DNA of 64,000 nucleotides from Promethearchaeota archaeon (GTDB lineage: Archaea > Asgardarchaeota > Lokiarchaeia > Sigyniarchaeales > SOKP01), in assembly GCA_048940925.1 (NCBI GenBank), contig JBHLOC010000017.1, positions 22,636 through 86,635 of the forward strand, in the 5' to 3' direction. Below the pieces are notes generated by a model that was given only the letters and a program-made list of their open reading frames with translations, had not been told where the DNA came from and did no database searches. Positions 60,105 through 62,360 of this stretch are shown piece by piece (position 1 is the stretch's first letter; each line of letters begins with the position of its first letter). Both the position numbers and the translations under genes were made by a program.

Positions 60105-62360
60105 ATGTCTTTAAAAGAATTTACGAAGGAAGTATTCACTCGATATGGATTTACTGAAGAGCATATCAATATCTATTTGGTATATTTAAGAGTTCCCCGC
60201 GCTACAACTTCTGAAGTTTATATGACGCTTGTTGAAGAGTATGAAGATTTACAGTATGAAACTGTAGTAGAAGTCACTAATTGGCTAGTTGAAAAAGGTT
60301 TCCTAAAAAAAATTGAAGGAATAGTTGATAGATACATTCCTCTTGAACCTTTCTTTGAGTTATTTACTAATGAATCTGAAATTTTTAGAGATGAAATAGC
60401 AAAGATAAAAGATAATATTTTGAGCGATCAATCTAGTCGTTTTGAGAAACTTGAGGGAATACAAAATAATAGTCTTCAAGAAATAGAAAAAGCTGTAGAT
60501 ACTCAGATTAAGGATTTTTTTGAAGATTCAGATACAAAAAGTAATAATAAAAAAAATAGAATTGAAAGGGCAACTAATCGATTTACTGAAACTAGTAAAG
60601 CTCTTGAGAATAATATACATACAATTGTGGACACATTAAACATAAAACTAAAAAATATATCTGGATCGAGTGTGAGCAACAATGAAACTGAGATAAATAA
60701 GACAAAAGAGAATTTAACTACTTTAATTCAAAATTTATTAAATGATTTTTCAACAAGAGTTGAAAATTTAGATAAAGAGTTAAAAATGGATCTTGATGAG
60801 CACGTAGAGAGACATAAAAATATTGCAAATCAGTTAAAACCAAAAATGGAGCAAATTTTAGAGAAATACTTGGAGCGTATGGATAAAGTAGTTGCAGATC
60901 TAAAAGAAAGGATTTCAAATATATTAAAAGAACATACATCTCATGTTAAAAACACTACCGACACCTTACAAATGAATTTAAAAGCTACTGTGGATGATAG
61001 ACATCGTACACTTATCACCCAGACTAATGATTTTAAAAATATGACTTTAACATTAATAGACAATTTACTTGAACATGCGAATAGATTCACTGATTTTTCC
61101 GAAGATATGGCTAAAAAGGGATTTTTCTGGATGGGAAAAAAGAAAAAATACAAAGCAAGGCATGAAACCACTATACAAAACATTTTAACTTACACTGAGC
61201 CAATGAAAGAGAACTTTATTAAAGAAAGTGATGAGTATATCCAAAATACAAGGAATACCACAGATCAAGTTAAAACTGATGTCACAAGTATCATGTCAAC
61301 TGAACATGAAAATCTAGCTGTTGAAACTAATGATTTAAATTATAAAGCTCAAGAAACCATTGAAGCTCAATTGGAAACCTTAGCTACAGATATGGCGGGT
61401 GAAGTTGATGATACATTGCAAAGTGGTATCAAAGATTGCTCTGATACTACCCTTAAATTAAAAGATTCTTTAGAAAACTCTCTAAAACAGCATCATCGCC
61501 AATATGATGAATCAATCACTAATCATAGAGAAAGTTCTCTAAGACATTATACAAATTTTGATACTGAAATTAAGAGAATAAATGCAGATTGGACGAGAGA
61601 AGTTGATACTGAATTTACTAACGGTAAAAGAGATTGTTCAGAAAAGATAAATAGCGAAATTAGTCTATGGGACACTGAATCGAGAGATATGGATAATAAC
61701 CTCTCGACTATGCTTACAGATCATAAATCAAAATATGAACAAAACGCAAAAACCTTGCAAAATAGTTTATCAAATACCACACAAGACACCATTCAAAATG
61801 TAAAAGATGCTATTGCCGACTTTACCCTTCAATTTATGAATTCAATTGATGACGCAACTGAACTTGGTGAAAATAATGAAGGAAAATTAAAAGATATTCA
61901 TATTGCTTCTAGCTCAATCCCAGAAATATCTAAGGTTACATCTTGGCAGGTAATAGGCAGACAGGCCATGATAAATGCTATGAAAGACGCAATTTATCGT
62001 GTTAAATCCTCAATTATAATAGTCACCCCCGTTGTTGTCCCTGAGATCTTACAAGTTGTTTCTGAATATGCCTTTCAAAAGAAGGCAGCTAGATTTATGC
62101 TCACCTCTCATTTTGATCTTCAAACTTACTCTGGAATAATTAAAAAGATGCAACAGTTAGGAAATATACAATTTCGACAATTACAAACACCAGCAGATTT
62201 CTATGCACTAACTCGCGATGCAGAAGAAGTAATCCTTTGTCCTCATTCAGAAAAAGAATCAGAGATGATCGCGGTTGTTTCTAATCAGACAGCTTATTCC
62301 ATCCTATATTCCCAATTCATAGGACCTATATTTCAAGCGAATAGCCGCCCGATCAAATAG
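60105..62360 (+). CDS. TrmB-like wHTH, ~530-aa helical/coiled-coil insert, TrmB-type (PLD-fold) C-terminal domain
   Basis: N-terminal GFTEEHINIYL...LVEKGFL...RYIPLEP. C-terminal VIGRQAMINAMKDAIYRVKSSIIIVTP...TRDAEEVIL. Confidence 0.75.
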   Translation: MSLKEFTKEVFTRYGFTEEHINIYLVYLRVPRATTSEVYMTLVEEYEDLQYETVVEVTNWLVEKGFLKKIEGIVDRYIPLEPFFELFTNESEIFRDEIAKIKDNILSDQSSRFEKLEGIQNNSLQEIEKAVDTQIKDFFEDSDTKSNNKKNRIERATNRFTETSKALENNIHTIVDTLNIKLKNISGSSVSNNETEINKTKENLTTLIQNLLNDFSTRVENLDKELKMDLDEHVERHKNIANQLKPKMEQILEKYLERMDKVVADLKERISNILKEHTSHVKNTTDTLQMNLKATVDDRHRTLITQTNDFKNMTLTLIDNLLEHANRFTDFSEDMAKKGFFWMGKKKKYKARHETTIQNILTYTEPMKENFIKESDEYIQNTRNTTDQVKTDVTSIMSTEHENLAVETNDLNYKAQETIEAQLETLATDMAGEVDDTLQSGIKDCSDTTLKLKDSLENSLKQHHRQYDESITNHRESSLRHYTNFDTEIKRINADWTREVDTEFTNGKRDCSEKINSEISLWDTESRDMDNNLSTMLTDHKSKYEQNAKTLQNSLSNTTQDTIQNVKDAIADFTLQFMNSIDDATELGENNEGKLKDIHIASSSIPEISKVTSWQVIGRQAMINAMKDAIYRVKSSIIIVTPVVVPEILQVVSEYAFQKKAARFMLTSHFDLQTYSGIIKKMQQLGNIQFRQLQTPADFYALTRDAEEVILCPHSEKESEMIAVVSNQTAYSILYSQFIGPIFQANSRPIK

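Follow-up and report, generated by a model that had tools for sequence, protein, structure and literature searches.

Proteins of the TrmB family, among them TrmB itself (structures 3qph and 2f5t) and the Thermococcales chromatin protein TrmBL2 (5bpd, 5box, 5bpi and 5bqt), have a domain of the winged helix-turn-helix (wHTH) type and a phospholipase D (PLD)-like domain, and in TrmB these are joined by a single short coiled-coil helix. Tyr50 and, to a lesser extent, Asp51 are the DNA-binding residues of TrmB, TrmBL1 and TrmBL2, helix alpha5 is the dimerising coiled coil of the family, and TrmBL2 has no sugar-binding subdomain (PMC4158304). Here we describe a relative of these proteins encoded at 60105-62360 (forward strand) in a 64,000-nucleotide (nt) stretch of the genome of a Lokiarchaeon (Promethearchaeota, Asgard archaea; contig JBHLOC010000017.1, positions 22,636 to 86,635; the whole stretch is hereafter called the window). 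The open reading frame (ORF) is uninterrupted over 751 codons, as an earlier sequence-only reading of the window had described it, and we refer to its 751-amino acid (aa) product as the rod protein. Both of its end domains are of TrmB/TrmBL2 ancestry and stand in the same order as in those proteins; the single coiled-coil helix of TrmB aligns at one end with the helix that follows the wHTH domain and at the other with the helix that precedes the PLD-like domain, and, like TrmBL2, the rod protein is without the sugar-binding barrel. The rod protein differs from both in having a hairpin of about 510 residues inserted in the linker helix (751 aa against 264 to 338 aa), and in the residues with which the family contacts DNA.

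In overall architecture the rod protein also resembles SMC, Rad50 and MukB, in which a long intramolecular antiparallel arm unites the N- and C-terminal parts of the chain in one head, the lengths of the two arm strands co-vary, and the arm ends in a special apex; a possible elbow (P246 / G432-G441 in the rod protein) extends the likeness. It differs from them in that the ABC ATPase head, the hinge and the zinc hook are missing, no ATPase family having been found in Pfam and NCBIfam scans of this protein, and in that its arms follow a hendecad instead of a heptad repeat and match each other exactly to the residue. The comparison with SMC and Rad50 drawn in the sequence-only reading is thus sound for the geometry, and fails for the head and for the type of repeat.

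The helical hairpin and its tip

Pro and Gly make up only 0.6% and 1.7% of residues 86-612, in line with the nearly Pro/Gly-free insert noted earlier, and hydrophobic residues in this region recur with a period of 3.65-3.67 residues (11/3; power 349 against a maximum of 97 over 500 shuffles), which corresponds to a hendecad and not to a heptad (3.5 residues). The 11/3 phase is coherent over aa 85-340, broken at aa 343-354 and coherent again over aa 430-590. Arm 1 (aa 83-335; 60351..61109, +) forms a continuous helix of 23 hendecads, and when the arms are written in rows of 11 both show a hydrophobic seam of the a-d-e-h type, which in arm 1 runs unbroken through all 23 rows. Arm 2 (aa 354-603; 61164..61913, +) is the helix that returns to the head, and its hendecad phase is steady between aa 430 and 590.

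Three separate hidden Markov model (HMM) anchors, placed at aa 55-100, 318-366 and 598-650, served to measure the length of each arm. Longer relatives have insertions of 11 to 150 residues at about aa 163 of arm 1 (60591..60593, +), and these are paired with insertions of identical length at aa 507-522 of arm 2 (61623..61670, +). Over nine length classes the change in arm 1 equals the change in arm 2 (deltas of 0, 11, 40, 44, 51, 62, 84, 106 and 150; r = 1.0, slope 1.0). The same equality was seen in 75 further orthologs from named Promethearchaeota metagenome-assembled genomes (MAGs), whose arm deltas were (0,0) in 62 cases, (11,11) in two, (40,40) in nine and (44,44) in two. Every arm-length delta is 0 or 7 modulo 11 (relatives P0121-P0126 and L013-L021), and judged from these sequences the rod is lengthened in steps of complete hendecads, to which some lineages have added a single heptad.

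A full-length AlphaFold2 model, built from a 35-sequence alignment (mean predicted local distance difference test, pLDDT, 79), consists over this region of one helix at residues 83-335 and another at 345-603, with a loop modelled at low confidence (336-344) between them; the pLDDT of residues 338-343 is below 50, which suggests that the modelled loop is exposed or flexible. The helical region of the model superposes on solved hairpins, and each match has its centre close to residue 340. Maxi (4ke2), the hyperactive antifreeze of winter flounder, matches model residues 239-438 over 196 residues (Z 10.5, root-mean-square deviation (rmsd) 4.2 Å), the dynein stalk 8i3j matches residues 170-511, and several other hairpins match about 285-400. 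Maxi is likewise a helical hairpin and is built on an 11-residue repeat, and its whole 196-residue chain is superposed; it is a eukaryotic protein of unrelated sequence (7% identity) without end domains, and we used this and the other superpositions for the geometry of the model only and not for kinship.

Covariation between the arms was analysed by mutual information with average product correction (APC) in 162 distinct 751-aa orthologs (effective number 56). Summed in anti-diagonal bands, the signal is strongest at i+j = 680-686, with z 3.6-3.8, whereas no parallel band exceeds 1.9, and 21 of the top 100 inter-arm pairs fall at i+j 676-692, where 6.5 are expected. The antiparallel and parallel arrangements are separated in the banded analysis only, single anti-diagonals reaching z 3.1 against 3.7 in the parallel control. 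When the smoothed conservation profiles of the arms are correlated in mirror image, the peak is likewise at i+j = 680-681 (r 0.46), but this test is non-discriminating, the parallel control giving r 0.69. A register of about 683 pairs G339 with G344 to form the turn, and half-way along the helical part, at (83+603)/2, lies residue 343.

Because the matched arm lengths, the geometry of the model and the covariation all point the same way, we regard the fold-back of the chain into a hairpin as close to certain. The antiparallel stalk proposed in the sequence-only reading has therefore stood up, with about 255 residues per arm and its turn at the tip, and the predicted structure is neither a compact bundle nor a parallel coil. 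With a rise of 0.15 nm per residue, the roughly 253 residues of arm 1 (the second helix, 345-603, has 259) would span about 38 nm, and an arm of the longest close orthologs about 60 nm.

Two conserved features of the arms lie opposite each other in the register of about 683. Pro246 of arm 1 (60840..60842, +) is conserved in 98% of the 162 orthologs, and in arm 2 (Gly432 to Gly441; 61398..61427, +) the two glycines are conserved in 93% and 96%. Mirrored on the other arm (683 minus i), Gly432 and Gly441 fall at 251 and 242, on either side of Pro246, and the pLDDT dips in both arms near these residues, at aa 241-260 and 421-440. Pro246 and Gly432/Gly441 are thus a possible elbow about 14 nm from the tip. 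Core positions of the arms are conserved at 87-90% and surface positions at 77-78%; since the latter value is high for a coiled coil, the alignment hints at contacts along the rod. A two-copy complex prediction for the tip-proximal hairpin (aa 230-450) scored 0.35, the mark being 0.42, and counts neither way on binding.

The tip (aa 336-353; 61110..61163, +) reads AKK-G-FFWM-G-KKKKYKARH, i.e., a Gly-bracketed aromatic loop followed by a polybasic run. The aromatic/basic patch pointed out earlier, GFFWMGKKKKYK, occupies aa 339-350 and does lie at the midpoint of the insert. Residues 330-356 are the most conserved stretch of the protein, with 93% column identity among orthologs at 72-94% identity (wHTH domain 84%, C-terminal domain 86%). 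With a net charge of about +8 the tip is the only strongly basic patch in a protein of about -30, arms 1 and 2 contributing -11 and -24. By the Wimley-White interfacial scale the best 5-mer of the protein is GFFWM (-4.33 kcal/mol; the runner-up, at -2.93, is in the wHTH core), which is also the only such hydrophobic window with net positive flanks. Diverged orthologs (47-64% identity) keep the same type of tip in other letters (GLFFTKGKKRKF, GFFFGKKKKLKY, GIFFFKGKRQKY and RGAAFKALFAGKHKKY), which indicates selection for a greasy loop and a polybasic run.

The membrane-targeting sequences of MinD, FtsA and MARCKS consist of a short aromatic or hydrophobic run beside a Lys/Arg cluster, the C-terminus of E. 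coli MinD being KKGFLKRLFGG. The tip of the rod protein (KKGFFWMGKKKK) and of its relatives (KRGAAFKALFAGKHKK) resembles them in composition only, and differs in that the motif is placed at the apex of a hairpin and not at a chain end, and in that its lipid binding is only predicted. As far as its residues can tell, membrane binding fits the chemistry of the tip.

The winged helix and the PLD-like domain

The TrmB/TrmBL2-type wHTH domain occupies aa 1-82 (60105..60350, +), close to the aa ~1-80 first given for it, is net acidic and has its recognition helix at aa 49-64. A profile built from 24 family N-domains matched, over residues 1-95, TrmB (3qph, E 2.9e-8) and TrmBL2 (5bpd, E 5e-8). The Pfam TrmB family PF01978 gave 17.2 bits in this protein, under the cut-off of 25.6, which is passed by the relatives P0126, P0150 and P0213 at 20-40% identity (28.6-35.1 bits). 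The helix after the wHTH domain begins at aa 83 and the profile alignment reaches TrmB residue 94, so that the first turns of arm 1 align with the dimerising coiled-coil helix of TrmB, which is here extended to a 253-residue arm.

The TrmB-type PLD-like alpha/beta domain that had been recognised at aa ~613-751 was found again at these residues (61941..62357, +). It carries the conserved motifs GNIQFR, RDAEEV and SRPI, and an AlphaFold model of the C-terminal 152 residues has a pLDDT of 94.9. The best structural matches of this model are the PLD-like subdomain of TrmB (2f5t, Z 18.6, rmsd 1.9 Å over 131 residues; 3qph, Z 18.0), with TrmBL2 (5box) at Z 16.4, and true PLD-family proteins score lower (Z 12-15.6). 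The best Foldseek match of the full-length model is TrmBL2 (E 1e-7). The invariant residues of the C-domain are W614, K634, P642, N687, D705 and E708; the HxK(x)4D (HKD) motif of phospholipase D was looked for, and no invariant His was found in the domain. Because it has no conserved histidine the C-domain is not an HKD enzyme, and it shares the fold alone. The second effector subdomain of TrmB, a beta-barrel with the sugar-binding residues G320 and E326, is absent, the chain ending at aa 751 just after the PLD-like domain.

The PLD-like C-domain also occurs free-standing in relatives (~145-230 aa); in P0143 it is fused to TPR repeats, a helix-hairpin-helix and a zinc ribbon, and in P0204 and P0212 to transmembrane segments. 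It looks like a mobile module, and its polar residues K634, N687, R704, D705 and E708 are conserved. Weak matches to NCBIfam ZorA and to Pfam Exonuc_VII_L and Baculo_PEP_C fell below the cut-offs and on the helical repeat, and were treated as compositional.

In the HMM alignment to 3qph, Val55 stands at the position of Tyr50, Glu56 at that of Asp51 and Thr53 at that of Arg48, and an equivalent of Tyr50 is missing across the rod family as a whole. The recognition helix has two Glu, and the net charge is about -6 in the HTH region and about -4 in the whole wHTH domain. With Val and Thr in the places of Tyr50 and Arg48 and a net negative HTH region, canonical TrmB-type DNA reading by the head is unlikely, and the DNA-binding head of the sequence-only reading is not supported in the form it was given.

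Distribution and gene neighbourhood

Almost all of the best 120 of 366 matches are exactly 751 aa long, 72-94% identical to the rod protein and derived from Lokiarchaeia/Promethearchaeota MAGs, and 23 aligned 751-aa orthologs have zero internal indels. In the phylum sample the gene is present in 38 of 40 genomes of the same family and in all three other genomes of the order, and many other Asgard families have weaker full-length relatives (~20% identity, 750-1800 aa). Look-alike clusters in the atlas are almost all archaeal and mostly from Promethearchaeota, the exception being a single bacterial one, weak (score 0.77) and made up of short TrmB proteins. Among the sequences seen, the rod protein is a member of the TrmB/TrmBL2 lineage found almost only in Asgard archaea. 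Between the source genome and genome G049 it is 79% identical, and two conserved neighbours are 46-49% identical; by this comparison of sequences, the rod gene evolves more slowly than its neighbours. Five MAG records labelled Hodarchaeota, Thorarchaeota, Hermodarchaeota or Odinarchaeota (L034, L037, L038, L047 and L067) carry orthologs 72-81% identical to this Lokiarchaeial protein, and their phylum labels look unreliable.

The source genome has one copy of the rod gene. A possible ribosome-binding site, GGAG, lies at 60093..60096 (+), 8 nt before the ATG, as read from the DNA sequence only. The gene is preceded by an AT-rich spacer of 159 nt, which separates it from leuD, and is followed by about 500 nt of non-coding DNA, and for these reasons we consider that it stands alone. 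No operon partner emerged among the leu genes and the small downstream ORFs of the window, which are unlinked to the rod gene in other genomes. At three distant loci (L113, L114 and L116) the genes next to the relative were metabolic ones or encoded a DNA ligase, and no operon with an ATPase gene and another rod gene was seen there.

At 46 of 67 orthologous loci the rod gene is divergently flanked by a surface-protein gene and then by the gene of a membrane protein with tandem wHTH domains (median gap 280 bp). A nitroreductase gene and, downstream, Fae-Hps are further recurrent neighbours, and this arrangement looks like synteny and not like an operon. The divergent pair is found at 54026-56065 (-) of the window and at L002:1-1186; its first member is a surface protein of about 236 aa with a signal, transmembrane segments and an ETNHFSxWT motif, and its second, of about 420 aa, is a membrane protein whose tandem wHTH domains (PF24266) are cytoplasmic. 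In the window, leuA, leuC and leuD (56468-59945) separate the rod gene from the surface-protein gene (55382-56065, -), which in most other family genomes is the immediate divergent neighbour of the rod gene; the position of leuACD suggests that a local insertion or rearrangement took place here. Downstream of the rod ortholog in genome G049 (L002:3972-4634) lies a gene, not a conserved neighbour, whose product is a small Ras/Rab-like GTPase carrying a CxxC...CxxC zinc ribbon at its C-terminus.

Possible roles of the rod protein

We tentatively propose, at a probability somewhat short of even, that the rod protein is a tip-anchored membrane spacer or strut rather than a sugar-sensing transcription factor. 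The short coiled-coil linker helix of TrmB has here grown into an antiparallel hendecad hairpin (~253 + 259 residues) whose two arms keep strict register, and the apex of this hairpin would insert into the membrane, or rest on it, from its anionic cytoplasmic side, much as the hydrophobic-basic sequences of MinD and MARCKS do. The stiff rod would hold the TrmB-like head about 38 nm from the membrane, or 40-60 nm in longer orthologs. By analogy with TrmB the head probably dimerises, and its partner would more likely be a protein or other ligand than DNA bound in the canonical TrmB mode.

Several observations weigh against this proposal. Transmembrane segments were looked for at the tip of relatives and none was found there, such segments occurring only in the short C-domain-only homologs P0204 and P0212. 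Relatives at ~20% identity without a recognisable tip motif often have, at the midpoint predicted on the assumption of equal arms, a Gly/Pro-rich basic loop with few aromatics (e.g., GFRKPFP, GLLKKPDP and RRLFSGKK); a Pro lies seven residues or fewer from the predicted midpoint in 9 of 32 such sequences, against 2.7 expected, the sequences not being mutually independent. As these midpoints are poor in aromatics, the greasy tip is not universal in the wider family, and the conservation that had been anticipated for the tip holds among orthologs, near and diverged, and often lapses at this distance. The polybasic aromatic patch could equally bind nucleic acid. Finally, the wing of the wHTH domain retains the basic residues K68, K69 and R76, and the head may yet bind DNA.

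These last points bear on two other explanations. The rod protein may be a chromosome-membrane tether, as the sequence-only reading had it, in which the head binds DNA non-specifically in the manner of TrmBL2, the tip binds the membrane and the nucleoid is kept about 38 nm from the envelope. The closeness of both head domains to TrmBL2 and TrmB, the retained Lys and Arg of the wing and a tip chemistry suited to an anionic membrane all speak for such a tether, but the Val at the family DNA-contact position Tyr50 (PMC4158304), the Thr at Arg48, the two Glu of the recognition helix and the acidic charge of the HTH region and of the whole wHTH domain make it unlikely on balance, if still worth serious attention. 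A somewhat smaller chance is given to a bridging rod whose tip binds DNA or RNA, or pairs tip-to-tip in the role of the Rad50 hook, so that head dimers would link sites about 40-80 nm apart. That the tip is the sole strongly basic patch of an acidic protein, that the midpoints of distant relatives are basic Pro/Gly loops and not greasy ones, and that the matched antiparallel arms have the geometry of SMC and Rad50 would agree with it; three to four consecutive exposed aromatic or hydrophobic residues between glycines, however, are unusual for nucleic-acid contact and typical of membrane insertion, the tip is without Cys or His hook residues, and the protein has no ATPase domain.

A regulator with a sensory stalk, in which the head regulates genes and the stalk or tip senses the state of the membrane or a partner, e.g., by helix sliding as in the dynein stalk, would suit the TrmB ancestry, a strict arm register that could pass a signal along the rod, and the gene pair, encoding a surface protein and a wHTH protein tethered to the membrane, that adjoins the rod gene divergently at 46 of 67 loci. 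We hold it to be very unlikely, as the recognition helix is decayed, the effector barrel domain is missing, and the neighbourhood, which includes Fae-Hps and nitroreductase as well and is interrupted by leuACD in this window, resembles plain synteny. Least probable of all, and by our estimate close to negligible, is an apolipoprotein-like protein whose 11-residue amphipathic helices open and coat a lipid surface along their full length. The rod protein shares an 11/22-residue amphipathic helical periodicity (11/3) with apolipoproteins A-I, A-IV and E (PF01442), and there are weak matches to apoA-I chains and to PF01442 (38.9 bits here and 114 bits in P0213), which we ascribe to the hendecad pattern. 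The score of this protein is below the family cut-off of 90 bits, however, its arms are strongly acidic, and their exact matching together with the covariation indicates that the hydrophobic seams face each other, i.e., the arms are paired with each other and not with lipid.

In searches of the literature on TrmB coiled-coil proteins in Asgard archaea, on hendecads in Asgard archaea, on Lokiarch_28300 and on the Lokiarchaeum ossiferum proteome, no description of the rod protein was found, and the public annotations seen for it were hypothetical protein or sugar-specific TrmB regulator only. It is a clear case of a transcription-factor scaffold turned structural protein, and the residue-exact matching of its arms in units of 11 makes it a useful model for the evolution of antiparallel rods. 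Of the prokaryotes known, Asgard archaea are most closely related to eukaryotes, and their internal cell organisation is little known. In these cells a single-copy, nearly universal (within the family) and slowly evolving gene encodes what seems to be a rigid rod, constant in length and at one end suited to a membrane. If the strut proposed here, or a tether, is true, the rod protein would be a structural element that can be searched for in existing cryo-tomograms of cultured Lokiarchaea. It is a further, rather improbable idea that the rod protein is a molecular ruler of the Asgard cell, which with its tip in the membrane and its rigid, register-locked hendecad arms would keep the membrane at a constant distance from the nucleoid, the cytoskeleton or some other layer. 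This distance would come to about 38 nm for the present protein, to 40-60 nm for longer orthologs and to about 115 nm for the 1000-1800-aa relatives if these also fold back, and the lamina and envelope tethers of eukaryotes would then have a prokaryotic counterpart that descends from a chromatin protein.

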